This document shows, piece by piece, positions 1 through 12,161 of a stretch of 12,161 nt of DNA. This DNA comes from a virus. Lineage: Duplodnaviria > Heunggongvirae > Uroviricota > Caudoviricetes. The position numbers and the translations under genes were made by a program. The notes beneath the pieces are model-generated. The model was not told the DNA's origin and made no database searches. It saw only the letters and a list, made by a program, of their open reading frames with translations. The DNA lies in the IMG/VR virus record IMGVR_UViG_2675903313_000008; one strand, given 5' to 3'. The stretch's first letter is position 1. Each line of letters opens with the position of its first letter.

Positions 1-693
1 CTGCTGACCGCCAAACTGCTCCGCATCCACCTGCAGCCCCACAATCGCCGTGTTCGGGTAGCACTGTTTCACATCGATGATTTCGGTGTATGACGACCAG
101 AGCGTCTTATTCTGCAGCTGGTCCGGGGTGCTGTCCGCTGTCTCCCGGACCATCCGGATGTTAAAGGGCCGCTCAGGCAGATTCTCCAGAATCACCGACG
201 CCAGGTACTGTGAGGTGGTCTTGCCGTTAATGGTGACATCCTTTTCCGTCACCCAGTTACCGTTACGCTGCAACTGAATCAGCAGTCGGACAGAAGAGGG
301 ATTACGGTCGCCCTTTGAGGTGGTCTCCAACAGTGACTGCACCCCGAAGGTGACCCGCAGGCGGTCAATGTTCGCGGATGTAATGGTGCGCGTTACCGGC
401 TTTGCCTTCGTCACTTCCACGCCCAGTGCGGTTTCCGCCCCGGAGGACTCAAAGCCTTCAGGTGGTGTCTGCTCCTGCTCCCCGGCGCGCCAGACCGCGG
501 TCACACCATGTATCACAGGATTACCGTCCGTGTCCGTCAGCGGGGTTTTGTTCACCAGGATACTCTGCAGCCCCTTCACCGGACCTTCAATCGGCCCTTC
601 ACCAATGGCATCAATCACGCTCATCATCTGCGTGGACTTAAGATTGTCCTTTACCTCAACCGGCGTGTGCGCCCTGCCGCCACCTTTACCCAT
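1..693 (-). CDS. J: Tail tip / host specificity protein J, N-terminal 231 codons only; the rest lies beyond the window start
   Basis: Manual reverse translation from ATG (693-691) gives [38 protein letters not shown]..., which matches my recollection of the lambda gpJ N-terminus ([38 protein letters not shown]). An AGAGGA Shine-Dalgarno sits about 6 nt upstream on the minus strand. The frame stays open to position 1. Confidence 0.85.
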
Positions 694-826
694 AATGTTC
701 CTCTCAATTGGTATTATTAATCGCAGTGATAGGATATTGCACAGCTATTGCGCGATATCATCAGAACGCTGTTTGTTACCCTGTAACCAGCAAGCTCAGT
801 CTGTTAACGGAATTAATGAGGGTTTT

Positions 827-1354
827 ATGAAATGTAAAATCATTGCTGCCATTGCCATGCTGACAGCAGCATCATGCGGATACGCAGCAGAACAGGAAGT
901 CCCAATGAACCTTGTCAGTGCTGACGGAAAAGAAGTCAGCATTGGAAAAATAACCATTCAGGAGACCCCCTACGGTCTGCTGTTCACACCAGCCCTTCAC
1001 TCTCTGTCTGAAGGCATTCATGGTTTTCATGTGCACGAAAAAGGAAATTGCGCCCCGGCACTGAAAGACGGAAAACCGGTCGCAGCATTATCGGCTGGCG
1101 GTCACTTTGACCCGAAAAACACCGGCAAACATCTTGGCCCCTGGTCTCCGGATGGACACCTGGGCGACCTCCCTGCGCTGTTCGTGACGCATGACGGAAA
1201 AGCGAACTACCCGGTCCTGGCCCCGAGACTGAACTCATTAAAAGAGATTAAAGGGCGTTCTCTCATGCTTCATGCTGGCGGTGATAACCATCATGACCAT
1301 CCGGAGCCCCTGGGCGGTGGTGGTGCGAGAATGGCCTGCGGCATCATTCAATAA
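827..1354 (+). CDS. sodC: Periplasmic Cu,Zn superoxide dismutase (SodC family, phage-borne SodCI-like), 175 aa with N-terminal signal peptide
   Basis: The in-frame ATG at 827 is preceded by GAGGG 6 nt upstream. The translation [24 protein letters not shown]... carries the SodC hallmarks [30 protein letters not shown] and [12 protein letters not shown] (metal-binding His/Asp and the disulfide Cys pair). The ORF-track entry 320..1354 is the same frame extended upstream through the antisense of J. Confidence 0.9.
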
Positions 1355-1361
1355 TCAGTCA

Positions 1362-1390
1362 GGTAAGGGGCGGGCCCCTTACCTTTATTC
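1362..1390 (+). terminator. Intrinsic terminator downstream of sodC
   Basis: GGTAAGGGG (1362-1370) pairs with CCCCTTACC (1375-1383) around a 4-nt loop, followed by TTTATT. It starts 8 nt after the sodC stop. Confidence 0.6.
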
Positions 1391-1502
1391 CTCAGGACGA
1401 TAAATCCTTTCTCCCTGAAAAGAACGGCACATCCTCCCTCTCTGAGTTAATGTTTTTGTCGTGACATAAGAATAATTCCTTACACTCAATCTTCGTAACT
1501 CT

Positions 1503-1540
1503 CCCGCAGTTCCTGTCCGTGAGCACTGCGGGATTTTTTA
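1503..1540 (+). terminator. Second plus-strand intrinsic terminator, abutting the 3' end of I
   Basis: CCCGCAGT (1503-1510) pairs with ACTGCGGG (1525-1532) around a 14-nt loop, followed by ATTTTTTATGTTTT. The U-tract is only on the plus strand, so it is oriented for plus-strand transcripts. Confidence 0.5.
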
Positions 1541-1544
1541 TGTT

Positions 1545-2225
1545 TTATGCCTGCCGCCCGATAACCACCACCTTCCCGTCACCGCCTTCATCACGGGTAC
1601 TGATGTCCTGGGAGATTCGCCGGGAGCCAACCAGCATTTCACCGTAAGGCACCGGCATCGGGTTCCCCTGGGCAATCATGTTATCCAGCGAGGAAAAGTA
1701 CGTGTTCTGTCTGCCGTTATCCGTTGCGCGGTAATCCGGTGTTTTTGCCTTCGGGGCCAGCATCTGGGCCACACCGCCCAGAATCATGCTGGCTCCAAGT
1801 GAAAACAGCATCGTGGTGGCAGAAAAACCACCGGCTGCCAGGGCTGAACCCCATAACGCCATTGATGCCCCGGCAGTGAAGAAAGAGCCCACGATGGCTG
1901 CCGCCCCCAGCACAATCTGCAGTCCACCCTTTCCGGCCCCGGCCAGTCGCGGCACAATGTGGATGACCGTTCCCTCACCCAGCTGTTCGTGAAGACGGGC
2001 GTACACCGCCTCCGGTGCCGTGTCCTCACCGCGAATACGTATCTGGTACCAGCCTTCGTTCATCTGACGGCGGAATCCCGGCATCTGCATCGACAGGGCA
2101 CGAATGGCTTCCGCTGCCGTGTTCACATACAGGCTGAGGCGGCGGCCAAATCGTTGTAAATCCCCGTGAAGGCAGATACGTGCCAGTGGCGGTGACGCCA
2201 GGCTGAATGCGTTCGTCGTTGCCAT
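1545..2225 (-). CDS. I: Tail tip assembly protein I (226 aa)
   Basis: ORF translation MATTNAFSLASPPLARICLHGDLQRFGRR...GASMILGGVAQMLAPKAKTP...NTYFSSLDNM matches my recollection of lambda gpI. ATG at 2225-2223, TAA stop at 1547-1545. Confidence 0.85.
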   Translation of the reverse strand: MATTNAFSLASPPLARICLHGDLQRFGRRLSLYVNTAAEAIRALSMQMPGFRRQMNEGWYQIRIRGEDTAPEAVYARLHEQLGEGTVIHIVPRLAGAGKGGLQIVLGAAAIVGSFFTAGASMALWGSALAAGGFSATTMLFSLGASMILGGVAQMLAPKAKTPDYRATDNGRQNTYFSSLDNMIAQGNPMPVPYGEMLVGSRRISQDISTRDEGGDGKVVVIGRQA

Positions 2226-2866
2226 TTTTCGGAATACCTCTCCCGTTTACTCAGTTGTTCAGGCAGATGGTGAAGCAGCTCACCGTTGCCGCAGTAAATG
2301 GCGGCATGATTGGCCACCGATGCGCCAAAGCAGCACAGCAGGATATCGCCCGCCTGTGCAGAGGACAGGGGCACCCGGTAAAAGCCGGTGACCGCCATAT
2401 TGTCCAGGTAAAGGTTCTGACCGTTACGCCACCAGTCATCCTCACGCTCAAAATCCGGCATATCAATTCCCGCCAGATGGTATGCATCCCGGAACAGCGT
2501 GTAACAGTCCGTCACCCCGTGCTCAAAGCGCCGTCCTGTCAGATGTGGCACACAGCGGAATTTATGAATTTCCCCCCGGCAGACCAGCCACCAGGACAGT
2601 GCACTTTTTATCTGCAGCCGCCGGTCGGCCTCGCTCAGCCAGGGCAGACCACCGGGGTGGCTGTGGACCAGCGCCACAATCTCCCCCTGCATCTCTGCCC
2701 GCAGCCAGTCTTCCGGTGCAATACGAAAATACGCCTCCGGCTCTGCAGAGATATTCACACAAGGGATATACCGCTCCCCCTCCGGCGTTCTCACCACGAA
2801 GCCGCACGACTCCGCAGGCACACACCGCCGGGCATGCGCCAGAATCGCTGATTCAGTCTGTGTCAT
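2123..2866 (-). CDS. K: Tail tip assembly protein K, full length (247 aa); JAMM/MPN-like N-terminal half plus NlpC/P60-like C-terminal half
   Basis: From ATG at 2866-2864 the translation is MTQTESAILAHARRC...VHSHPGGLPWLSEADRR (JAMM-type HxH...S..D motif) ...DCYTLFRDAYHLAG...HAAIY (Cys/His of a C40-type peptidase). The track ORF 2123..3127 is the same frame with an 87-codon upstream extension that overlaps L. Confidence 0.85.
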   Translation of the reverse strand: MTQTESAILAHARRCVPAESCGFVVRTPEGERYIPCVNISAEPEAYFRIAPEDWLRAEMQGEIVALVHSHPGGLPWLSEADRRLQIKSALSWWLVCRGEIHKFRCVPHLTGRRFEHGVTDCYTLFRDAYHLAGIDMPDFEREDDWWRNGQNLYLDNMAVTGFYRVPLSSAQAGDILLCCFGASVANHAAIYCGNGELLHHLPEQLSKRERYSEKWQRRTHSAWRHRHWHVSAFTGIYNDLAAASACM

Positions 2867-2876
2867 AAACCGGGAT

Positions 2877-3575
2877 TTACTGCGAAAGTTTGTTAATGGA
2901 AAGGAAACCGCCAAAATTGCCGACATTCCTGCGCAGTTCACACCCGCGCATGCACTTGCTGCATCTGTCCTTACGGATATCCGTGGTGGGTTTATCGAAC
3001 TCATCCGCCACAGCCCCGCCCGTGTAACCACACTCATCAGAGCGGTAGGTCCACATACAGGTGTTCGCCAGCATGATGCGACCGGGAAACAGCGCCCCGT
3101 CCGTCTCGGTCGGTGTGGCCAGCACAAACGAGGCCGTCATGGCCGTCAGCTCTGATAACTGCTCCACCACCCAGCGGTCGCTCAGCTCCTGCTCCGGGTC
3201 CGCTTCCGGATTGCCCGCCACAAAATTCACCGCATCCAGAAAACGGGCATACACCCGGCGGCGGACCACCGTGGCCCCCACCAGGCTCTGCAAATCCTCC
3301 GCCATTCCGGTGACCAGACCAAACAGATTGGACACCGTCAGCGACGGGCGGGCACTGCTGCCCTTCCCGCTCATCTCAAAACCGCTGCCGTCAATCGGGT
3401 ATGCCTGATATTGCCGCCCCTGCCAGGTGACCGGCTCCCCTTTTTCATTCAGCTCATTACAGAAAAAATACCGCTCACCACCCTGTACCGTCAGGTCGAT
3501 TTCCCAGAGTACCACCCGCGGTGACTGCTCTGACTTAACCGACTCGTTCAGGCTTTCTTCGTGAATATCCTGCAT
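2877..3575 (-). CDS. L: Minor tail protein L, allele 1 (232 aa)
   Basis: MQDIHEESLNESVKSEQSPRVVLWEIDLT...NVGNFGGFLSINKLSQ matches my recollection of lambda gpL. ATG at 3575 overlaps the stop of the upstream M-like gene; TAA stop at 2879-2877. The C-terminus is Cys-rich. Confidence 0.85.
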   Translation of the reverse strand: MQDIHEESLNESVKSEQSPRVVLWEIDLTVQGGERYFFCNELNEKGEPVTWQGRQYQAYPIDGSGFEMSGKGSSARPSLTVSNLFGLVTGMAEDLQSLVGATVVRRRVYARFLDAVNFVAGNPEADPEQELSDRWVVEQLSELTAMTASFVLATPTETDGALFPGRIMLANTCMWTYRSDECGYTGGAVADEFDKPTTDIRKDRCSKCMRGCELRRNVGNFGGFLSINKLSQ

Positions 3576-3916
3576 CAGTTCACCACCTGCTCTATCGTGC
3601 AACTGAAATCACTGTACCGGGCATTATCCGTGACACTCCACTCACGGCACACAACCCTCACCGTCCGGTTATGTTTCGGCGGTCGCCACAAAAAGGCACG
3701 GTAACCACCATGCCACGATAAAAACTCTTCCAGCCAGCGCCGGGTTGACTCATCCGTCACCCGGAACACCGCCTGAAACGTCTTCAGTTGAGGATTCAGT
3801 CCTGTGGGGCGACGCTGTTCATAACCGTCACCAAACCGCACCCTCACCACCGACGGCTTCTCACTCACCTGCATCCCTTCACGCGGGACCAGATGCAGCG
3901 TTTTTATCTCAGCCAC
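3575..3916 (-). CDS. Minor tail protein M, divergent variant (113 aa, apparent GTG start), copy 1
   Basis: The translation ...SVVRVRFGDGYEQR...GGYRAFLWRPP...EQVVN aligns with the lambda gpM core (RFGDGYSQR...GGWKSFLWTPP...EQVVN) but is clearly diverged. Its stop overlaps the L start. Confidence 0.7.
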   Translation of the reverse strand: MAEIKTLHLVPREGMQVSEKPSVVRVRFGDGYEQRRPTGLNPQLKTFQAVFRVTDESTRRWLEEFLSWHGGYRAFLWRPPKHNRTVRVVCREWSVTDNARYSDFSCTIEQVVN

Positions 3917-4003
3917 TCAGCATTCCTCCGTCACGTCGCATGGACAGCATCACCGCCTGCACCCGCTGGTCAATCAGCTGCACAAGACTGCCTGCCGCCT
4001 CCG
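3909..4003 (-). CDS. 3' end of a tape-measure (H-like) gene, truncated by the N-run; last ~30 codons only
   Basis: The sequence is identical to 5425-5519, where the same frame is the C-terminus (...RRDGGMLSG*) of a long H-like ORF. It stops at 3909-3911 and is cut off at 4003 by the N-run. Confidence 0.5.
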
Positions 4004-4014
4004 NNNNNNNNNNN
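4004..4014. other. Run of 11 N: assembly/scaffold gap
   Basis: Literal n characters in the sequence. The left flank is H-type sequence and the right flank restarts inside K at ACAGCGTGTAACAG. Confidence 0.95.
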
Positions 4015-4387
4015 ACAGCGTGTAACAGTCCGTCACCCCGTGCTCAAAGCGCCGTCCTGTCAGATGTGGCACACAGCGGAATTTATGAATTTCCCCCCGG
4101 CAGACCAGCCACCAGGACAGTGCACTTTTTATCTGCAGCCGCCGGTCGGCCTCGCTCAGCCAGGGCAGACCACCGGGGTGGCTGTGGACCAGCGCCACAA
4201 TCTCCCCCTGCATCTCTGCCCGCAGCCAGTCTTCCGGTGCAATACGAAAATACGCCTCCGGCTCTGCAGAGATATTCACACAAGGGATATACCGCTCCCC
4301 CTCCGGCGTTCTCACCACGAAGCCGCACGACTCCGCAGGCACACACCGCCGGGCATGCGCCAGAATCGCTGATTCTGTCTGTGTCAT
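4015..4387 (-). CDS. K: Tail assembly protein K, 5' fragment (first ~124 codons), truncated at the gap; copy 2
   Basis: ATG at 4387-4385. The translation MTQTESAIL...HGVTDCYTL is identical to the copy-1 K N-terminus and the reading frame runs into the Ns. Confidence 0.7.
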
Positions 4388-4392
4388 TGGAT

Positions 4393-5091
4393 TTACTGCG
4401 AAAGTTTATTAATGGAAAGGAAACCGCCAAAATTAGCCACCATGCCGCGCATCTCACACCCGCGCATGCACTTGCTGCATCTGTCCTTACGGATATCCGT
4501 GGTGGGGGTGTCGAACTCATCCGCCACCGCAGGACCGTTATACCCGCATTCATCTCCCCGGTAATCCCACATACAGGTGTTCGCCAGCATGATGCGACCA
4601 GGAAACAGCGCTCCGTCCGTCTCCGTCGGTGTTGCCAGCACAAACAAGGCTGTCATGGCCGTCAGCTCTGACATCTGCTCCACCACCCAGCGGTCGCTCA
4701 GCTCCTGCTCCGGGTCCGCTTCCGGATTGCCCGCCACAAAATTCACCGCATCCAGAAAACGGGCATACACCCGGCGGCGGACCACCGTGGCCCCCACCAG
4801 GCTCTGCAAATCCTCCGCCATTCCGGTGACCAGACCAAACAGATTGGACACCGTCAGCGACGGGCGGGCACTGCTGCCCTTCCCGCTCATCTCAAAACCG
4901 CTGCCGTCAATCGGGTATGCCTGATATTGCCGCCCCTGCCAGGTGACCGGCTCCCCTTTTTCATTCAGCTCATTACAGAAAAAATACCGCTCACCACCCT
5001 GTACCGTCAGGTCGATTTCCCAGAGTACCACCCGCGGTGACTGCTCTGACTTAACCGACTCGTTCAGGCTTTCTTCGTGAATATCCTGCAT
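4393..5091 (-). CDS. L: Minor tail protein L, allele 2 (232 aa)
   Basis: Same architecture as allele 1. It differs in the C-terminal Cys-containing region (CMWDYRGDECGYNGPAVADEFDTPTT...CEMRGMVANFGG versus CMWTYRSDECGYTGGAVADEFDKPTT...CELRRNVGNFGG). Confidence 0.8.
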   Translation of the reverse strand: MQDIHEESLNESVKSEQSPRVVLWEIDLTVQGGERYFFCNELNEKGEPVTWQGRQYQAYPIDGSGFEMSGKGSSARPSLTVSNLFGLVTGMAEDLQSLVGATVVRRRVYARFLDAVNFVAGNPEADPEQELSDRWVVEQMSELTAMTALFVLATPTETDGALFPGRIMLANTCMWDYRGDECGYNGPAVADEFDTPTTDIRKDRCSKCMRGCEMRGMVANFGGFLSINKLSQ

Positions 5092-5432
5092 CAGTTCACC
5101 ACCTGCTCTATCGTGCAACTGAAATCACTGTACCGGGCATTATCCGTGACACTCCACTCACGGCACACAACCCTCACCGTCCGGTTATGTTTCGGCGGTC
5201 GCCACAAAAAGGCACGGTAACCACCATGCCACGATAAAAACTCTTCCAGCCAGCGCCGGGTTGACTCATCCGTCACCCGGAACACCGCCTGAAACGTCTT
5301 CAGTTGAGGATTCAGTCCTGTGGGGCGACGCTGTTCATAACCGTCACCAAACCGCACCCTCACCACCGACGGCTTCTCACTCACCTGCATCCCTTCACGC
5401 GGGACCAGATGCAGCGTTTTTATCTCAGCCAC
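5091..5432 (-). CDS. Minor tail protein M, divergent variant, copy 2 (113 aa)
   Basis: Protein identical to the 3575..3916 product. Confidence 0.7.
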   Translation of the reverse strand: MAEIKTLHLVPREGMQVSEKPSVVRVRFGDGYEQRRPTGLNPQLKTFQAVFRVTDESTRRWLEEFLSWHGGYRAFLWRPPKHNRTVRVVCREWSVTDNARYSDFSCTIEQVVN

Positions 5433-6670
5433 TCAGCATTCCTCCGTCACGTCGCATGGACAGCATCACCGCCTGCACCCGCTGGTCAATCAGCTGCACA
5501 AGACTGCCTGCCGCCTCCGGCCCTATCTGGCCATTAGTCCCGTCATTCTGAATGGCGATGTGGTAGACCGGGGAATACACCAGACCCGCACTACCGTTCA
5601 TACTACCCACGGCGCGTACGCCCAGCGAGCCATCCGCCGCCCGGGTCAGGGGCATAATGGCTTCAGGTCCGGCTTCCCCCATCAGCCCGGCCCCTTTTGC
5701 AAAGGCAAAGTACGTGGGCGTGTCCACAATGCTGTTGCTGTACGCGCTCAGGTTTGCCGAGGTATACACGCCGCCTTTTGCATTGACCACCGCACCGCCC
5801 AGCCAGTCACCAATGCTGCCAAGAAATCCTCCCGCACCGGACATACCGTTTGCCGCCGTCTTGATCCCGTTGACAATCGCGGCATTCATAAGGACTTTTG
5901 AGATTTCCTGCAGTACGGATGAGGCCCAGTTGCGCCATTCCACTTTGTTTCCGTTCAGCATCTCCGTGATGTTATTCACCAGTCCTGAAATCCCCTCAGT
6001 CGCCAGCTGTGCTGCCTGAGAGGCGTAATCGGACGCATTATCCACCCAGTTACTGAGCCCCTCCTGCAAGCCTTTCTGCCAGTCCGCACGCTGCGCATCC
6101 GATTCGGCATAAAAAGTTTCCTGGTCTTTAAGGCGTTCACTCAGATACTGCGCGTTCTGTGCCAGAGCCTGTCTGTAAAAATCCTCACTGATATCCCCGG
6201 TCTGATACTGAGACTGAAGGTCCGCATCCTTCTGGCGGAAGCTGTCGCGGATCTGCTGCAACTCCCGCATGCGTTCCCTGGCTCGTTCCCCCTGCCCGTA
6301 CCCCAGCAGTTCAGATTCATTTGATGCACGCGCAGCCACATTATCATTCTTCAGGGTCTCTTCCCGGTACCGCAACTGTTCCCGGATTTTTTGCTGGTCA
6401 ATCAGGGCCGCGTTACGCAGCAGTTCCTGCTTCTGCATCTCCGTCAGGGTTTTCAGTTCGCCCTGCGCAGTCTGGTACTTCAGCTTCGCCAGCTCTGTAT
6501 TCTGACCCGCCAGTGCCAGTTGCTCTTTCTGCTGCTTCAGTAGCCGGGAAAAACTGTCTTCCGCTTTTTCCGTCTCTGATTTTCCACCCCGGGATTTAGG
6601 TTTGTTCGCCTCGTTATTACGCCAGGCTTCCAGAGCATTACTGATATAACGCTGTCTCGCCTCCTGATAC
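5425..6670 (-). CDS. Tape measure protein, H-like variant, C-terminal ~415 codons; 5' end cut off at the single N
   Basis: The translation is rich in coiled-coil Q/E/K/R/L repeats (LKQQKEQLALAGQNTELAKLKYQ...) and ends with a Gly-rich tail ...HIAIQNDGTNGQIGPEA...MRRDGGMLSG, parallel to the lambda-like H C-terminus in this window (...NNHVVIQNDGTNGQAGPQ...MRDGGVFSGGRR). The track ORF 5425..7044 joins it through the N to the K fragment and is not a real protein. Confidence 0.7.
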
Positions 6671-6671
6671 N
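6671..6671. other. Single N marking a second join between unrelated sequences
   Basis: Left of it is the interior of the H-like gene; right of it the sequence restarts at exactly the same K-internal position (ACAGCGTGTAACAG) as after the first N-run. Confidence 0.85.
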
Positions 6672-7044
6672 ACAGCGTGTAACAGTCCGTCACCCCGTGC
6701 TCAAAGCGCCGTCCTGTCAGATGTGGCACACAGCGGAATTTATGAATTTCCCCCCGGCAGACCAGCCACCAGGACAGTGCACTTTTTATCTGCAGCCGCC
6801 GGTCGGCCTCGCTCAGCCAGGGCAGACCACCGGGGTGGCTGTGGACCAGCGCCACAATCTCCCCCTGCATCTCTGCCCGCAGCCAGTCTTCCGGTGCAAT
6901 ACGAAAATACGCCTCCGGCTCTGCAGAGATATTCACACAAGGGATATACCGCTCCCCCTCCGGCGTTCTCACCACGAAGCCGCACGACTCCGCAGGCACA
7001 CACCGCCGGGCATGCGCCAGAATCGCTGATTCTGTCTGTGTCAT
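6672..7044 (-). CDS. K: Tail assembly protein K, 5' fragment (first ~124 codons), copy 3
   Basis: ATG at 7044-7042; same MTQTESAIL...DCYTL translation, truncated at the N. Confidence 0.7.
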
Positions 7045-7740
7045 TGGATTTACTGCGAAAGTTTATTAATGGAAAGGAAACCGCCAAAATTAGCCACCAT
7101 GCCGCGCATCTCACACCCGCGCATGCACTTGCTGCATCTGTCCTTACGGATATCCGTGGTGGGGGTGTCGAACTCATCCGCCACCGCAGGACCGTTATAC
7201 CCGCATTCATCTCCCCGGTAATCCCACATACAGGTGTTCGCCAGCATGATGCGACCAGGAAACAGCGCTCCGTCCGTCTCCGTCGGTGTTGCCAGCACAA
7301 ACAAGGCTGTCATGGCCGTCAGCTCTGACATCTGCTCCACCACCCAGCGGTCGCTCAGCTCCTGCTCCGGGTCCGCTTCCGGATTGCCCGCCACAAAATT
7401 CACCGCATCCAGAAAACGGGCATACACCCGGCGGCGGACCACCGTGGCCCCCACCAGGCTCTGCAGGTCCTCCGCCATTCCGGTGACCAGACCGAACAGA
7501 TTCGACACCGTCAGCGACGGGCGGGCACTGCTGCCCTTCCCGTTCATCTCAAAGCCACTGCCGTCAATCGGGTATGCCTGATATTGCCGCCCCTGCCAGG
7601 TGACCGCCTCCCCTTTTTCATTCAGCTCATTGCAGAAAAAATACCGCTCACCACCCTGTACCGTCAGGTCGATTTCCCAGAGTACCACCCGCGGTGACTG
7701 CTCTGATTTAACCGACTCGTTCAGACTTTCTTCGTGAATA
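6672..7740 (-). repeat. Repeat unit copy 3 (K 5' half + L), diverging toward the lambda-like M
   Basis: 6672 to about 7450 is nearly identical to 4015 to about 4790. Substitutions accumulate toward the 5' end of L, and beyond 7748 the sequence is unrelated to copies 1 and 2. Confidence 0.8.
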
Positions 7741-7748
7741 TCCTGCAT
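7050..7748 (-). CDS. L: Minor tail protein L, allele 3 (232 aa)
   Basis: MQDIHEESLNES...; closest to allele 2 but with scattered substitutions (e.g. EAVTWQ, FEMNGKG). ATG at 7748 overlaps the M stop (ATGA). Confidence 0.85.
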   Translation of the reverse strand: MQDIHEESLNESVKSEQSPRVVLWEIDLTVQGGERYFFCNELNEKGEAVTWQGRQYQAYPIDGSGFEMNGKGSSARPSLTVSNLFGLVTGMAEDLQSLVGATVVRRRVYARFLDAVNFVAGNPEADPEQELSDRWVVEQMSELTAMTALFVLATPTETDGALFPGRIMLANTCMWDYRGDECGYNGPAVADEFDTPTTDIRKDRCSKCMRGCEMRGMVANFGGFLSINKLSQ

Positions 7749-8077
7749 CAGTTCACCACCTGCTTAAACTCGGCACTGAATTCAACCCGCAGCATGCGAA
7801 CCCGTGATGACCAGGCGGCACTGGTCACCTTTATCTGCCGGTATGCATAAGGAGGTGTCCACAGAAACGCCTTCCAGCCACCGTGCTCTGCCAGGAATGC
7901 CTCCAGATGTCGGGCCTCCTCCCGGGTCACGGAAAGCGTCACACGGTATGTTTTCAGGTCAGCATTCAGCCCCGCCGCCATACGCTGCGAATACCCGTCA
8001 CCAAAACGCACTTCACGCACCGATGGCTGCGAGTTCACCTCCATATCCGGCTTCACTTTCCAGCGAAATGTTTTCAT
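7748..8077 (-). CDS. M: Minor tail protein M, lambda-like (109 aa)
   Basis: MKTFRWKVKPDMEVNSQPSVREVRFGDGYSQR...FLWTPPYAYRQIKV...RVEFSAEFKQVVN is near-identical to lambda gpM as I recall it. ATG at 8077 overlaps the H stop. Confidence 0.9.
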   Translation of the reverse strand: MKTFRWKVKPDMEVNSQPSVREVRFGDGYSQRMAAGLNADLKTYRVTLSVTREEARHLEAFLAEHGGWKAFLWTPPYAYRQIKVTSAAWSSRVRMLRVEFSAEFKQVVN

Positions 8078-10653
8078 CGCCTGCCTCCGGAAAATACGCC
8101 GCCATCACGCATCTGCGCCTGAATCTCATCCTGCGCCCCCTTGCGGGCCATGTCATACACCGCCTTCATCAGCTGCGGCCCCGCCTGTCCGTTGGTGCCG
8201 TCGTTCTGAATCACCACGTGATTGTTCTGATTAAAATTAATGCCTTCCGTCCGCCGCATCTGCGCCGGACTTCCGGCACCGCCCACATAACCACCTTCCG
8301 CATAGCCCCGCATCAGGCGGTACAGGTTGCCGACGCCAATCCGGCTGGTTGCCTCCTTCGTGAAAACAAACTCCCCGCGATGAACAATCCCCGCAGGCTC
8401 ATATTTGCCGCCCGTCCCCGTAAATCCTCCGGTCGCGAAATGGAAGTTCGCCGCCGCAGCCTGAATGGCCGTCCCCGTGGAGGCAGACGCCCCACCACCG
8501 AAAGCACCACCCATGGCGCTGCCAATACTCCCGACAATCCCCACCATGGCCTGCTTCAGAAAAATCTCTGTCAGCATGGAGAGCACAGAACGGGTGAAAC
8601 CACGCCAGCTCTGTTCGCTGCCGGTCAGCATCGCTGCCATATTCTGTGCAATACCGTCAAAGGTCTGCGTGGCCACGCTTTTAACCTGCGAAAAACTGTC
8701 CGTCACACTTTCCGCCCACTCGCCCCAGCCGGACTTCAGCCCGGCCATCCAGCTGCCACGAAGCTGGTCCTCCGCAGACCAGGTGTTCTTCAGTGCAGAT
8801 GTGGCCTTCGCCAGCGCATCCGGATTATCACCGTACACGTCACGAAGGCGCTGCGATTCCGACTCCCGCTGTGCCTGACGGTCCGTCAGCCCCCGGGCTT
8901 TTGCGCTGATTGCAGCCTGCTTCGCACTCTGCTGCTGTTCAAACCGCACAGCCTGATTTGCCAGCTCATTCAGCCGTTTCTGGTATTCAACCTTGTCACC
9001 CAGGTCAGCCAGCTGGCGTTTGTACTCCAGCGTCTCTTGCTCATGGGCCAGCAGGGATTTCTCCTGTGCAGACAGCTGGCGACGTTGCGCCGCCTCCTCC
9101 AGTACCGCGAACTGACTCTCCGCCTTCCACAAATCCCGGCGCTGCTGGCTGATTTTCTCATTCGCTCCGCTGTGCTTCTCCAGCGTCCGGAGCTCGGTTT
9201 CAAGCGCCAGCAGGGCAGCATGCGCCTGGTCTTCCTGACGCTCACCGGCTGACACTTTGACTCCTGACGACTTCGGCTTTTTCAGCGTCGATTCATAATC
9301 CTTTTTCGCCGCCGCCATCAGCGTGTTGTAATCCGCCTGCAGGATTTTCCCGTCTTTCAGGGCCTTATTCAGCTCTTCCTGCCGGTTAGTATATTTCTCC
9401 AGCGGCGTCAGCAGACGCTCATACGCCTTCTGCGCCTCTCCGGTATACTTCAGCCGTGATGCGTCCCGTTCGGCCCGGTCCCTGGTAGCCAGTTCACCGG
9501 CTTTTTCCATATCTGACTGCAGCGTGGCCGCTGCCAGCCCCAGACGGGCATTTTCCCGGTCATTCCATGCGCCCTGAAGGTTGGCCCGGAAAGAGGCGGT
9601 TTTTCCCCGGCGCTGGCTCCGGCTCTGGTACCACTGCCATTTTTTATCCGCCTCATCAAATGCCTTCTGTGCACTGGCGAGCATATCCGCTGAGGACTCA
9701 GGACGACCGATATCCAGAATGGCATCCCACATCGATTTGAATGCCTTCCCTGTTTTATCCGCCCAGGTCTCCAGTGTTCCCATGTTTTCTTTCAGGCGAC
9801 GGGTCTGCTCATCAAAGCCTTTCGTGGCGATATCGTTCGCCGCCTGCAATGCCCCGGCCTCGTCTCCGGAACGCTGCAGCTGTGCAACATACGCAATCTG
9901 CTCTGCCGTCACGTTACGGAACTGGCGCGCCATCGCCATCAGTCCCGACGTCGGGTCGGTGGTCAGTTTTCCGAAAGCCTCTGCAACCTTGTCCACCTCC
10001 ACACCGGATGCAGAAGCAAAACGCGCGACACTCTGGTTGATGGCATCAAACTGTTCACCACCACGCACACCGGCATTCACCAGGGCTGCCAGTGACTCAC
10101 TCGCCTGGTTAAACGTCAGCCCTGCGGCCTGTCCGGCTCTGGAGAGCGTCAGCATGCGATCGGCAGTCAGTCCGGACTGATTACCGGAAAGAACCAGGGT
10201 TTTATTAAACGCTGAAAGCGTGGAATCCCCCTGGTACCAGGCGTACGCCAGCGCACCTGTCGCCACCGCCAGCGAGGTGACCCCGACCATCGGCAGGGTG
10301 ATCGCACCGGCAAGTCCCCTGAACATGGGGATCATCCCGCCGAAGGAGTCCTTCACCTGACCGCCCTGTTGCAGCAGGATCAGCCAGGGATTCTGACCAC
10401 CGGCAAGCTGCGTGGCGATATCCGTAAACTGTGCGGGCAGGGTTCGCATGGCCGCTTTATACTGCCCGACGGAAATCCCGGCTTTTTGTGCAGCCAGCGC
10501 CTGGCGGCTCAGGCCCTGTTCAACAGCACTGGCGGTTTTTCTGGCGTCAGTCTCCAGTCCGGAAAAATGACGCCTTACCCGGCTCATCTGCTCATCGAAA
10601 CGGACCGCATCCAGACTCAGGTCAATAACAAGATCACCAACCGGCTGGGACAT
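8074..10653 (-). CDS. H: Tail tape measure protein H, lambda-like (859 aa)
   Basis: MSQPVGDLVIDLSLDAVRFDEQMSRVRRHFSG...QYKAAMRTLPAQFTDIATQLAGGQNPWLILLQQGGQVKDSFGG... matches lambda gpH along its length. A strong GGAGGTG Shine-Dalgarno precedes the ATG at 10653. Confidence 0.9.
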   Translation of the reverse strand: MSQPVGDLVIDLSLDAVRFDEQMSRVRRHFSGLETDARKTASAVEQGLSRQALAAQKAGISVGQYKAAMRTLPAQFTDIATQLAGGQNPWLILLQQGGQVKDSFGGMIPMFRGLAGAITLPMVGVTSLAVATGALAYAWYQGDSTLSAFNKTLVLSGNQSGLTADRMLTLSRAGQAAGLTFNQASESLAALVNAGVRGGEQFDAINQSVARFASASGVEVDKVAEAFGKLTTDPTSGLMAMARQFRNVTAEQIAYVAQLQRSGDEAGALQAANDIATKGFDEQTRRLKENMGTLETWADKTGKAFKSMWDAILDIGRPESSADMLASAQKAFDEADKKWQWYQSRSQRRGKTASFRANLQGAWNDRENARLGLAAATLQSDMEKAGELATRDRAERDASRLKYTGEAQKAYERLLTPLEKYTNRQEELNKALKDGKILQADYNTLMAAAKKDYESTLKKPKSSGVKVSAGERQEDQAHAALLALETELRTLEKHSGANEKISQQRRDLWKAESQFAVLEEAAQRRQLSAQEKSLLAHEQETLEYKRQLADLGDKVEYQKRLNELANQAVRFEQQQSAKQAAISAKARGLTDRQAQRESESQRLRDVYGDNPDALAKATSALKNTWSAEDQLRGSWMAGLKSGWGEWAESVTDSFSQVKSVATQTFDGIAQNMAAMLTGSEQSWRGFTRSVLSMLTEIFLKQAMVGIVGSIGSAMGGAFGGGASASTGTAIQAAAANFHFATGGFTGTGGKYEPAGIVHRGEFVFTKEATSRIGVGNLYRLMRGYAEGGYVGGAGSPAQMRRTEGINFNQNNHVVIQNDGTNGQAGPQLMKAVYDMARKGAQDEIQAQMRDGGVFSGGRR

Positions 10654-11098
10654 ATCTCACACCTCCGGAAATCCCCGCTGAAGCCATCATTAATGCGACA
10701 TCATCCTCGCTGACATCCGCCACATCCGCAGACGATAAAATCTCACGCCCTCCGTCCCCACCAAACCGTACGCCTCCGGCAAGTCCTGCCGCTTTCTGCA
10801 TCAGCATTTTTTCCTCATCCGGCATCTCCGTCTGCGCTTCCTCACGCCGGGGGGCAAGCAGACTGAAATCAGAGGGATGCATATCCGGATCGCAAAAAAA
10901 CAGGCTGAGTACGGCGTACGTCAGCCCGGAAAAATGCATATCCAGCTGGGTATCGTGAAAATAATGCGTACGGTAAAAATGTCGCCAGTCGGCATATTCG
11001 GTGGATGTCATCCCGGCAAGCATGGCGCGCCAGTCAGGCCTCCCCATCTCACGCGCCAGTCTGAGGGCAAAATTCAGCTCGCCGTCGAAGACTTTCCC
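10634..11098 (-). CDS. T: T reading frame of the tail assembly chaperone, expressed as a G-T fusion by -1 ribosomal frameshift
   Basis: The frame translates ...MGRPDWRAMLAGMTSTEYADWRHFYRTHYFHD...AGGVRYVPAGW, which matches lambda gpT. It is in the -1 frame relative to G and reachable from the slippery heptamer at 11092-11098. TGA stop at 10636-10634. Confidence 0.8.
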   Translation of the reverse strand, partial: GKVFDGELNFALRLAREMGRPDWRAMLAGMTSTEYADWRHFYRTHYFHDTQLDMHFSGLTYAVLSLFFCDPDMHPSDFSLLAPRREEAQTEMPDEEKMLMQKAAGLAGGVRFGGDGGREILSSADVADVSEDDVALMMASAGISGGVRYVPAGW

Positions 11099-11505
11099 GC
11101 AGAAAAATCATCATCAGTCAGCGCGTTATTTTTCGCCACTTCGGTGCTGTCAGTATCCGCATGAACAGCCCCGCTCATCCCGGACAGACGCAACACCACA
11201 TCTTCCGCCCGTGCAATGGCATCCGCAGGCCAGGTGGTGAGCACCTCCTGTTCGATCTGCATCACAGCCTCATTCATTGACGGTGATGCCGTTTTCTGCG
11301 GATGGTTATGCCACAGGGACATCGCCACCAGAAACGCGCCGGTTCTGACGAGATCTTCCACGCTTACCTGCAGGTTGCCGCTGGATTCTGCCTGTTCTGC
11401 ACGCCGTTTCAGGAGGGCAAGATGCTCAATACGCTGCAGCGCAGACAATTCGGAAAGCGTGACGGACACACCGTTATATTCAAATTGTTCTGTTTTCAGA
11501 AACAT
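11074..11505 (-). CDS. G: Tail assembly chaperone G (143 aa)
   Basis: MFLKTEQFEYNGVSVTLSELSALQRIEHLALLKRRAEQAES...TGAFLVAMSLWHNHPQKT... matches lambda gpG. A GGAGG Shine-Dalgarno precedes the ATG at 11505. Confidence 0.9.
   Translation of the reverse strand: MFLKTEQFEYNGVSVTLSELSALQRIEHLALLKRRAEQAESSGNLQVSVEDLVRTGAFLVAMSLWHNHPQKTASPSMNEAVMQIEQEVLTTWPADAIARAEDVVLRLSGMSGAVHADTDSTEVAKNNALTDDDFSAGKSSTAS
11092..11098 (-). promoter_or_regulatory. Programmed -1 frameshift slippery heptamer G GGA AAG
   Basis: The plus strand reads CTTTCCC, so the minus strand reads GGGAAAG in G frame G|GGA|AAG, 5 codons before the G stop. After a -1 slip the next codon begins at 11092 in the T frame (11092-11047 is a multiple of 3). 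Confidence 0.8.
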
Positions 11506-11518
11506 GTATTACCTCCGT

Positions 11519-12161
11519 TTACCCTGCAGCGCCCGCTTCAGTAACGGTGACTTCAGCCACTGCGGCGAACTGACCATTTCCGCTCACCACAGGGATCTGC
11601 ACCTTACCTGTCGCCACGCCGTTTACCGTAATTGTCATATCTTTCACACTAATGGTGGCTTTCGACGGATCGGCGGAAACCGCTCTGAACGTCTTGTCGG
11701 TTGCACTTTCCGGCTCAAAAGAAACCGTCAGGGTGGTTGTTTTCCCTTTTGCCACCGTACCGGATGTCGGCGTCACCTTAATCGCAGTGACCGGCGTAAT
11801 TTTGCTGCGTTCTTCCGCTACAGAAGGTTTGCCCACGTTGGTCACTTTCACCGTGCGGGTGATCACTTCTTTCGCCGTCACGGCCTTACCGATACTGCTG
11901 ACCCAGCCACGAAACACATCCACCGTGCCGTTCGGAAAACGGATTTTATAGGCCCGCACATCCCCGCTTTCAAACCAGCCTATAAGCCCTTTCTGACCTT
12001 CTTCTCCCGGTTTCCAGGCCAGCGTAAAACTGGTATCTCCTGCAGACTTCTGCCCCTGCCCGGTCGCGGTCCAGTCCGCGTCTTCATCATCCAGGTAGTT
12101 ATCATCGTAGGGTTCTGCCGTCATCTCGCCCGGCGTCAGATCCTTCACCTTAGCCAGTCGC
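11519..12161 (-). CDS. V: Major tail protein V, C-terminal ~213 codons; N-terminus beyond the window end
   Basis: ...[49 protein letters not shown]...[39 protein letters not shown]... plus a C-terminal Ig-like segment matches lambda gpV from about residue 38 onward. The frame is open to 12161; the track ORF start at 12148 is an internal GTG. Confidence 0.9.

Follow-up and report, generated by a model that had tools for sequence, protein, structure and literature searches.

The window analysed here, a stretch of 12,161 nt, contains K codons 1–124, L, and an M gene three times, raising the question of whether a phage tail-tip module has been amplified in tandem or whether the repetition arose during assembly. 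Our analysis indicated that the apparent triplication almost certainly reflects short-read scaffold joins of overlapping contigs that carry paralogous lambdoid tail modules, and not a biological structure.

The entire window is the reverse complement of contig CYBZ01000052.1 (12,161 nt, GCA_001277615.1). CYBZ01 is a Sanger Institute draft of the atypical EPEC strain 504005_aEPEC of E. coli (sample ERS085403, project ERP001141), and the project used Velvet and VelvetOptimiser to assemble 100-bp paired reads from a HiSeq instrument; the source is a scaffolded short-read draft. The pipeline of the institute has been described as including SSPACE and 120 rounds of GapFiller, with joins receiving N gaps, and its authors call its algorithms greedy and false joins possible (PMC5320598, Page et al. 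2016). Gaps treated with GapFiller stay open mainly in repeats (PMC3446322, Boetzer and Pirovano 2012). We infer from the published pipeline that SSPACE and GapFiller were applied to the CYBZ01 deposit, for which the dataset papers document only Velvet and VelvetOptimiser, and the program behind each join was presumably either the scaffolder built into Velvet or the combination of SSPACE and GapFiller.

We propose that strain 504005 carries several lambdoid prophages whose K-L-M tail-tip modules share near-identical blocks exceeding the read length. The assembler would then have yielded three pieces, each with the shared K5'-L block: piece 1 (1–4003), comprising J-sodC-I-K-L-M(a) and the end of H(a); piece 2 (4015–6670), comprising K5'-L-M(a) and the 3' part of H(a); and piece 3 (6672–12161), comprising K5'-L-M(c)-H(c)-T-G-V. 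The starts of pieces 2 and 3 would correspond to the edge of the shared repeat, and read-pair scaffolding would have laid the pieces in series, leaving short N tracts at the joins because the pieces could not be merged. In the real genome, the pieces would overlap one another or sit in different prophages, with probably at least two real prophage modules contributing. The features of the window are as follows.

1–695, minus strand: 5' part of the tail-tip gene J, ended by the contig end; colinear with annotated gpJ in finished genomes
827–1354, plus strand: sodC (Cu/Zn superoxide dismutase), a cargo gene between J and I; Pfam Sod_Cu, E = 3.9e-32
1545–2225, minus strand: tail assembly gene I; Pfam Lambda_tail_I
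2123–2866, minus strand: intact K, 247 aa; Pfam Prok-JAB (residues 3–105) and NLPC_P60 (111–224)
2494–2866, minus strand: K codons 1–124, copy 1 of the repeated block, within the complete K
2877–3575, minus strand: L copy 1, intact, 232 aa, with an allele of its own in the 3' third (2855–3158); Pfam Phage_tail_L, E = 3e-92
3575–3916, minus strand: M allele a, copy 1; Pfam Phage_min_tail; identical to 5091–5432
3909–4003, minus strand: last 95 nt of the tape-measure gene H(a), at the right end of piece 1; 3917–4003 identical to 5433–5519
4004–4014: join 1, 11 Ns; junction absent from all collections searched
4015–4387, minus strand: K codons 1–124, copy 2, truncated at the join; identical to 2494–2854 and 6672–7032; translation ends in ...GVTDCYTL
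4393–5091, minus strand: L copy 2, a chimera (left from copy 3, right from copy 1) by exact blocks
5091–5432, minus strand: M allele a, copy 2; identical to M copy 1
5425–6670, minus strand: 3' 1246 nt (414 codons) of H(a); Pfam Tape_meas_lam_C; 98.3% identity to the second NZ_CP148374.1 prophage
6671: join 2, a single N; junction absent from all collections searched
6672–7044, minus strand: K codons 1–124, copy 3; with 1–2493 it makes the K gene of a finished-genome prophage
7050–7748, minus strand: L copy 3; annotated as minor tail protein L in a finished-genome locus (L001)
7748–8077, minus strand: M allele c, 109 aa, divergent from allele a; Pfam Phage_min_tail, E = 8e-37
8074–10653, minus strand: complete tape-measure gene H(c), 859 aa; Pfam TMP_2 and Tape_meas_lam_C
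10634–11047, minus strand: T; Pfam Phage_tail_T
11074–11505, minus strand: G; Pfam Phage_TAC_2
11519–12161, minus strand: major tail gene V, ended by the contig end; Phage_TTP_12 and Big_2

The original prediction had described three occurrences of K5', L, and M, and these are indeed present. However, the range given for the third, 6672–7748, comprises K5' and L only, with the third M being a different allele located at 7748–8077, and that given for the first, 2494–4003, contains the last 88 to 95 nt of H in addition to K5', L, and M.

Only two N tracts are present in the window, each coinciding exactly with a suspected join. The 14-mer ACAGCGTGTAACAG is found at 2494, 4015, and 6672, and at the latter two positions it follows the Ns directly, as had been noted for the shared K-internal start of copies 2 and 3. 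Base 2494 belongs to K codon 124 and falls within the NlpC/P60 match, with the result that the break truncates K in this domain. The earlier view that 2494 is not a natural gene boundary agrees with the finished genomes, in which K was unbroken across this base in 4379 of 4386 matching records. We also considered 2494 as a natural mosaic boundary of K alleles but rejected this option given that K aligns across the position in nearly all records. In the paralogues of NZ_CP148374.1, the last differences are at 2481 and 2483, and the shared run begins at 2484, 10 nt before 2494. The start at 2494 might thus stem from 10-nt edge trimming by GapFiller, although this comparison is suggestive only, in that it uses the paralogues of NZ_CP148374.1 and not those of strain 504005.

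The left flanks of both joins are H sequence, as originally described: 5425–6669 matches Tape_meas_lam_C, and 3917–4003 is identical to 5433–5519. In a finished genome, H runs on past the equivalent of 4003 exactly as it does from 5520 onward, and the natural continuation after 6670 is GAATCCCCCACAAA, which is further H. A tandem duplication would be expected to show continuous, determined sequence at its junctions, whereas both junctions here consist of Ns. A difficulty for read-pair scaffolding lies in the link between piece 2, which ends inside H(a), and piece 3, which opens in K, given that uniquely mapping pairs able to support such a link are difficult to envisage.

The three copies were found to be non-identical, as predicted, with overall identities of 97.1% for copies 1 and 2, 99.0% for copies 2 and 3 (K5' and L), and 94.9% for copies 1 and 3. 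They form a strict mosaic of exact blocks: 2494–2854, 4015–4375, and 6672–7032 are identical in all three copies (361 nt), 4015–4808 equals 6672–7465 in copies 2 and 3 (794 nt), and 3159–4003 equals 4675–5519 in copies 1 and 2 (845 nt), with 134 nt (3159–3292) being common to all three. Identity without a mismatch over 361, 794, and 845 nt lies far above chance. The left 794 nt of copy 2 equal copy 3 and the right 845 nt equal copy 1, which makes this copy an exact chimera, and within piece 2 only 5520–6670 is unique to that piece. For no k up to 135 does copy 2 contain a private k-mer, and therefore no 100-nt read could prove that it is a separate copy; a complete lack of private k-mers is what a path along shared nodes of the assembly graph should show. 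The best match for the L allele of copy 1 (2855–3158) in any finished genome was 97.3%, and the allele was not found in the closest finished genome. Units and flanks of a tandem duplication should be copies of one another, which was not the case: the repeat units differ in length (1521 versus 2657 nt), M(a) and M(c) share 58.6% identity in DNA and 44.5% in protein, and amino acid identity between H(c) and the H(a) fragment is only 26%.

Comparison with finished genomes showed that taking out 2494–6671 restores colinearity. A splice of 1–2493 with 6672–12161 matched one prophage of NZ_CP148374.1 end to end over 7983 nt with 99.69% identity, and 6672–12161 alone matched with 99.96%. For the whole window, the best 25 places in finished genomes all covered 84%; 24 of them spanned 7983 nt, and the remaining place was longer owing to an IS679 insertion. 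This span equals 12161 minus 4178, with 4178 being the distance from 2494 to 6672. Piece 2, by contrast, matched at full length (98.3%) a different prophage of NZ_CP148374.1, which is located at 4.58 Mb, 3.6 Mb away, and encodes a head of the HK97 type and a tape measure of 1080 aa. NZ_CP148374.1 has six to nine homologous places. In NZ_CP104639.1, piece 1 is present in one block (97.7%), and the stretch unique to piece 2 comes immediately after it, an arrangement according to which join 1 is an unmerged overlap.

The junctions were missing from the independent assemblies searched. Junction 1 had no match in 5426 finished E. coli genomes, and exact searches for the junctions, allowing any base at N, gave none in IMG/VR, species-representative genomes, or JGI metagenomes. 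Among 50,697 phage records, none spanned more than the single-copy length and neither junction was present. The sole apparent match to junction 2 among finished genomes, in NZ_CP050998.1 (100% coverage), was rejected: K5' and H stand there in natural order, the reverse of that in the window, as a consequence of an internal deletion that removes L, M, and the 3' end of H. Gene callers create two chimeric open reading frames across the Ns, one of 539 aa (K1–124, X, and the H COOH-terminus) and one of 137 aa. Neither protein was found by exact look-up in a collection of 15 billion proteins, and the 539-aa frame over the single N is recorded on exactly one contig, CYBZ01000052.1. The suggestion that contigs had broken at the edge of a shared repeat and been joined over Ns is thus upheld by the Velvet origin of the draft, by the colinearity of the splice, and by the finding of the junctions nowhere else.

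The further suggestion that the copies represent paralogous modules from different prophages of one genome held in that the pieces match two prophages of NZ_CP148374.1, but three physical copies are not demonstrable from the sequence. Given that all of copy 2 can be found in copies 1 and 3 as well, two real modules and one chimeric path could also account for the window. According to this reading, which we regard as possible but rather doubtful, only two modules sharing the 361-nt and 134-nt blocks exist, and copy 2 is no third prophage but a chimeric route taken through the graph of the assembler. The 134-nt crossover block in copy 2 exceeds the 100-nt reads, this copy lacks private k-mers up to k = 135, and 5520–6670, the sole part unique to piece 2, can directly follow piece 1, as it does in NZ_CP104639.1. 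On the other hand, one NZ_CP148374.1 prophage combines an L whose 3' end resembles copy 3 with M(a) and H(a), just as copy 2 does, at 98.3% identity; this prophage, together with the six to nine homologous places in that genome, makes a real third module equally natural.

The pieces might instead have been concatenated by reference-guided contig ordering or manual editing, and not by read-pair scaffolding. All three would map to the same region of a reference prophage and so would sort side by side, and contig-ordering tools are named among the available improvement steps of the pipeline (PMC5320598). We nevertheless consider this highly unlikely, given that the record is a 12-kb scaffold and not a pseudomolecule, that gap lengths of 11 and 1 resemble size-estimated or partly filled gaps and not fixed spacers, and that the published pipeline makes read-pair joins and then fills gaps.

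A genuine tandem amplification of K5'-L-M(-H') within a single prophage of strain 504005, with each junction left unresolved over a few bases, would agree with the order in the deposited record and with the single-N join keeping K5' and H(a) in frame. An in-frame fusion is nonetheless expected by chance in one case in three, and join 1 is out of the H frame, with the K frame of copy 2 (3974–4387) stopping 30 nt past the Ns. Moreover, both junctions carry Ns and the same start base, and two independent recombinations are unlikely to have hit an identical K position with different left partners. As the H and M comparisons indicate, the copies are no mutual duplicates, the pieces fall in distinct prophages of a closely related genome, and the junctions were in no finished genome, phage, or metagenome contig searched, all of which renders such an amplification exceedingly unlikely. 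It is scarcely credible that strain 504005 harbors a tandem K5'-L-M array interrupted by tape-measure fragments as a result of recombination between co-resident prophages.

The triplication is therefore best attributed to the scaffold joins; the feature is not real and holds no biological novelty. The warning that gene order and copy number in the window should not be trusted proved justified, in that both are wrong in CYBZ01000052.1. The value of the result is as a quality flag for this record, whose two chimeric open reading frames are also untrustworthy. Surveys of prophage structure, of the copy number of tail genes, or of novel fusion proteins would be misled by this record or by similar drafts. 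Copies that start at an identical base after Ns, together with a middle copy without private k-mers longer than the read length, provide a simple diagnostic.

The window resembles known false joins of short-read scaffolds in its Ns at the joins, in pieces that start from a repeat edge, in repeats longer than the reads, and in its origin from 100-bp paired reads. Repeats usually collapse or fragment an assembly, however, whereas here the repeat-bearing pieces were placed one behind the other, with an inflated copy number and chimeric reading frames as the outcome. Once 2494–6671 is removed, gene order and Pfam families correspond to the lambda tail module V-G-T-H-M-L-K-I-J, with the H, M, L, K, I, and J families in lambda order. 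The window differs from lambda in its longer K, a 247-aa form with JAB and NlpC/P60 domains, and in carrying sodC, encoded on the opposite strand, between I and J. The sodC lambdoid prophages of EPEC and STEC, as in NZ_CP148374.1 and NZ_CP104639.1, for example, share the order J-sodC-I-K-L-M-H, with 97.7–99.7% identity and no difference beyond allelic mosaicism, and finished genomes have sodC annotated in the equivalent position. Depending on the genome, one and the same J-sodC-I-K segment is paired with either of two unrelated M/H alleles. A GGGAAAG slippery site is present at the end of G.

The triplication of the K(5')-L-M block in the window is not a biological feature. All phage genes of the window are encoded on the minus strand. 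In the layout listed here, copies 1, 2 and 3 denote the blocks starting at 2494, 4015 and 6672, respectively, and H(a) and H(c) are two alleles of the tape-measure gene. Pfam supports every listed gene but J and V, with V having been assigned from the Pfam families on record for the called genes of the source contig.

Features of the window
1-695, minus: J, 5' part (annotation of colinear finished loci)
827-1354, plus: sodC (Pfam)
1545-2225, minus: I (Pfam)
2123-2866, minus: K, complete (Pfam)
2877-3575, minus: L, copy 1 (Pfam)
3575-3916, minus: M, copy 1 (Pfam)
to 4003, minus: H(a), last 95 nt
4004-4014: join 1, eleven Ns
4015-4387, minus: K codons 1-124, copy 2
4393-5091, minus: L, copy 2
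5091-5432, minus: M, copy 2
5425-6670, minus: H(a), 3' 1246 nt (Pfam)
6671: join 2, one N
6672-7044, minus: K codons 1-124, copy 3
7050-7748, minus: L, copy 3
7748-8077, minus: M of a different type, copy 3 (Pfam)
8074-10653, minus: H(c), complete, 859 aa (Pfam)
after H(c), minus: T (10634-11047), G, then the start of V (T and G, Pfam)

As claimed in the original prediction, copies 2 and 3 begin at one K-internal base directly after Ns (4004-4014 and 6671, the only Ns in the window), with ACAGCGTGTAACAG at 4015 and 6672; the same anchor is found at 2494. The block ranges described there were accurate on the whole, except that the third (6672-7748) holds only the 5' part of K and L, and the first (2494-4003) includes the end of H. 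Given that the Pfam domains of K are JAB (residues 3-105) and NlpC/P60 (residues 111-224), the repeat start at codon 124 falls inside the second domain, and translation of the truncated K copies ends with ...GVTDCYTL. In 4379 of the 4386 matching records K runs unbroken through 2494; this position is therefore not a gene boundary, in agreement with the original prediction, and is not often a recombination boundary either.

The three copies form a strict mosaic. A stretch of 361 nt is identical across all of them (2494-2854, 4015-4375 and 6672-7032), and 134 nt at 3159-3292 are likewise common to all three. Copy 1 departs from copies 2 and 3 only in 2855-3158, by 45 substitutions and one 5-nt indel (50 differing positions). 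The first 794 nt of copy 2 equal copy 3 (4015-4808 = 6672-7465) and its last 845 nt equal copy 1 (4675-5519 = 3159-4003), with copy 3 diverging from the other two from 7466 on; its M shows 58.6% DNA and 44.5% protein identity to M of copies 1 and 2.

The whole window was compared with 5426 finished E. coli genomes. The best 25 places each covered 84% of the window, and the span on the record was 7983 nt in 24 of them, the remaining one being longer because of an IS679 insertion. This span equals the window length minus 4178 nt, the distance from 2494 to 6672. When 1-2493 and 6672-12161 were spliced, all 7983 nt matched a single prophage of strain Z1323HEC0108 (NZ_CP148374.1) with 99.69% identity, and 6672-12161 alone matched it at 99.96%. 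Piece 2 (4015-6670) matched over its full length, at 98.3%, another prophage located 3.6 Mb from the first on this chromosome; the tape measure of that prophage is 1080 aa long and its head module is of the HK97 type. Piece 1 (1-4003) was found as a single block in finished genomes (97.7%). In NZ_CP104639.1, the piece-1 block runs directly into the sequence unique to piece 2 (5520-6670, about 96% identical), and beyond the equivalent of 6670 H runs on with GAATCCCCCACAAA. The best reading of join 1 is therefore that two contigs with an overlap of ~1.5 kb stayed unmerged owing to their different L alleles. Join 2 links sequences that are adjacent in no genome examined.

A 611-nt query across join 1 had both sides covered in no finished E. 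coli genome, and a 601-nt query across join 2 in one (NZ_CP050998.1). The latter was rejected as a true junction, given that it has the natural order: the 5' part of K precedes H, and L, M and the H 3' end are deleted. This locus (6378-9258, O39:NM), which looked like a junction match until the order of the matching parts was inspected, is a decayed prophage that has lost the entire M gene, a 5' portion of L and the tape-measure 3' end, and its K is frameshifted. Exact patterns of the two junctions, in which N served as a wildcard, had no match in IMG/VR, JGI metagenomes or species-representative genomes; a control on the window itself confirmed that the wildcard matches Ns. No phage record carried more than the single-copy span. 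The proposed concatenation of contigs, as opposed to a real array, was thus borne out by the colinearity obtained on excising 2494-6671 and by the absence of the junctions from the collections searched.

The window is the exact reverse complement of CYBZ01000052.1 (GCA_001277615.1, 12,161 nt), the one public contig with a 539-aa ORF on record (5425-7044) that opens at the third K start, crosses the single N and continues into H(a). The strain behind CYBZ01 is E. coli 504005_aEPEC, which came from human faeces in India; in the GEMS atypical-EPEC collection it is isolate 504005 (lane 7790_1_70, sample ERS085403). For this collection (project ERP001141), 100-bp paired HiSeq reads from the Sanger Institute were assembled with Velvet and VelvetOptimiser. 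In the Sanger pipeline, Velvet is followed by SSPACE scaffolding and 120 rounds of GapFiller, and its authors state that these greedy tools can make false joins and that N gaps are put at joins (PMC5320598). GapFiller trims 10 nt at gap edges and adds one base at a time by a majority rule; gaps in repeats tend to stay open (PMC3446322). We infer that SSPACE and GapFiller were used on this deposit.

The called genes of the contig include two chimeric ORFs across Ns, both on the minus strand: the 539-aa ORF, consisting of K residues 1-124, X and a 414-residue H(a) COOH-terminus, and a 137-aa ORF (3974-4387). Both are without a Pfam hit on record, and the exact sequence of neither was found in a 15-billion-protein collection. 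In practice, the analysis serves as a warning on this record and its chimeric ORFs.

The exact blocks in the paralogous tail modules (361, 134 and 845 nt) exceed the read length, and the pieces start at a shared-block edge with only Ns between them. The assembly graph would have broken where the paralogues turn identical, repeat-bearing paths may have been output more than once, a read-pair scaffolder would have ordered them with gap estimates near or below zero, and the 11 Ns and the single N may be what gap filling left. The K paralogues at two prophage loci of NZ_CP148374.1 (L001 and L002) have their last differences at 2481 and 2483 of the window, and the run that they share from 2484 on precedes the piece start (2494) by exactly 10 nt; the default GapFiller edge trim is also 10 nt. 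Judged as it is on the paralogues of NZ_CP148374.1, not those of 504005, attribution of this offset to trimming is suggestive only and may reflect coincidence.

Three or more real prophage modules in 504005 are plausible. The copy-3 and copy-2 types of allele combination have natural examples at L001 and L002, respectively, and a copy-1-like combination has one in NZ_CP104639.1 (L005); the related genome NZ_CP148374.1 contains 6-9 homologous places. These observations make a real third module as natural as two real modules with a chimeric path for copy 2, a possible alternative consistent with the finding that no k-mer of copy 2 (4015-5519), up to k=135, is missing from pieces 1 and 3. With 100-nt reads, a separate physical copy 2 is provable by no single read, only by read pairs. 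The original assignment to paralogous modules of different prophages agrees with the mapping of piece 2 to a separate prophage, with at least two real modules contributing. A true tandem amplification within one prophage is highly improbable, as it requires that recombination struck one K nucleotide twice, with left partners unrelated to each other, and that both junctions are unresolved by chance.

The copy-1 L allele looks like a real one: it encodes an intact 232-aa protein with 16 synonymous and 11 non-synonymous codon differences from the other two alleles, although the best match to its variant region (2855-3158) among the 5426 finished genomes is 97.3%. This allele includes a 5-nt insertion, AAACC, between K and L. 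The insertion is also present in the L005 prophage together with some of the copy-1 L variants, and L alleles are thus finely mosaic.

With the artefact removed, what is left is an ordinary lambda-type tail module (V-G-T-H-M-L-K-I-J) with the cargo gene sodC, an organisation known from the annotation of many finished EPEC and STEC genomes. sodC is flanked by J and I, runs opposite to them and has a terminator-like hairpin of its own at 1361-1384. In the annotation of finished EPEC/STEC genomes, this J-sodC-I arrangement accompanies one or the other of two unrelated M/H alleles. The scaffold contains prophage tail genes only, and both of its ends cut a gene (J at 1, the major tail gene at 12161), probably at further assembly breaks induced by repeats. 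The motif GGGAAAG at 11092-11098 (minus) is the classic slippery sequence of the lambda G/G-T -1 frameshift; the G stop codon (11074-11076) follows shortly after it, with T (10634-11047) next in another frame.
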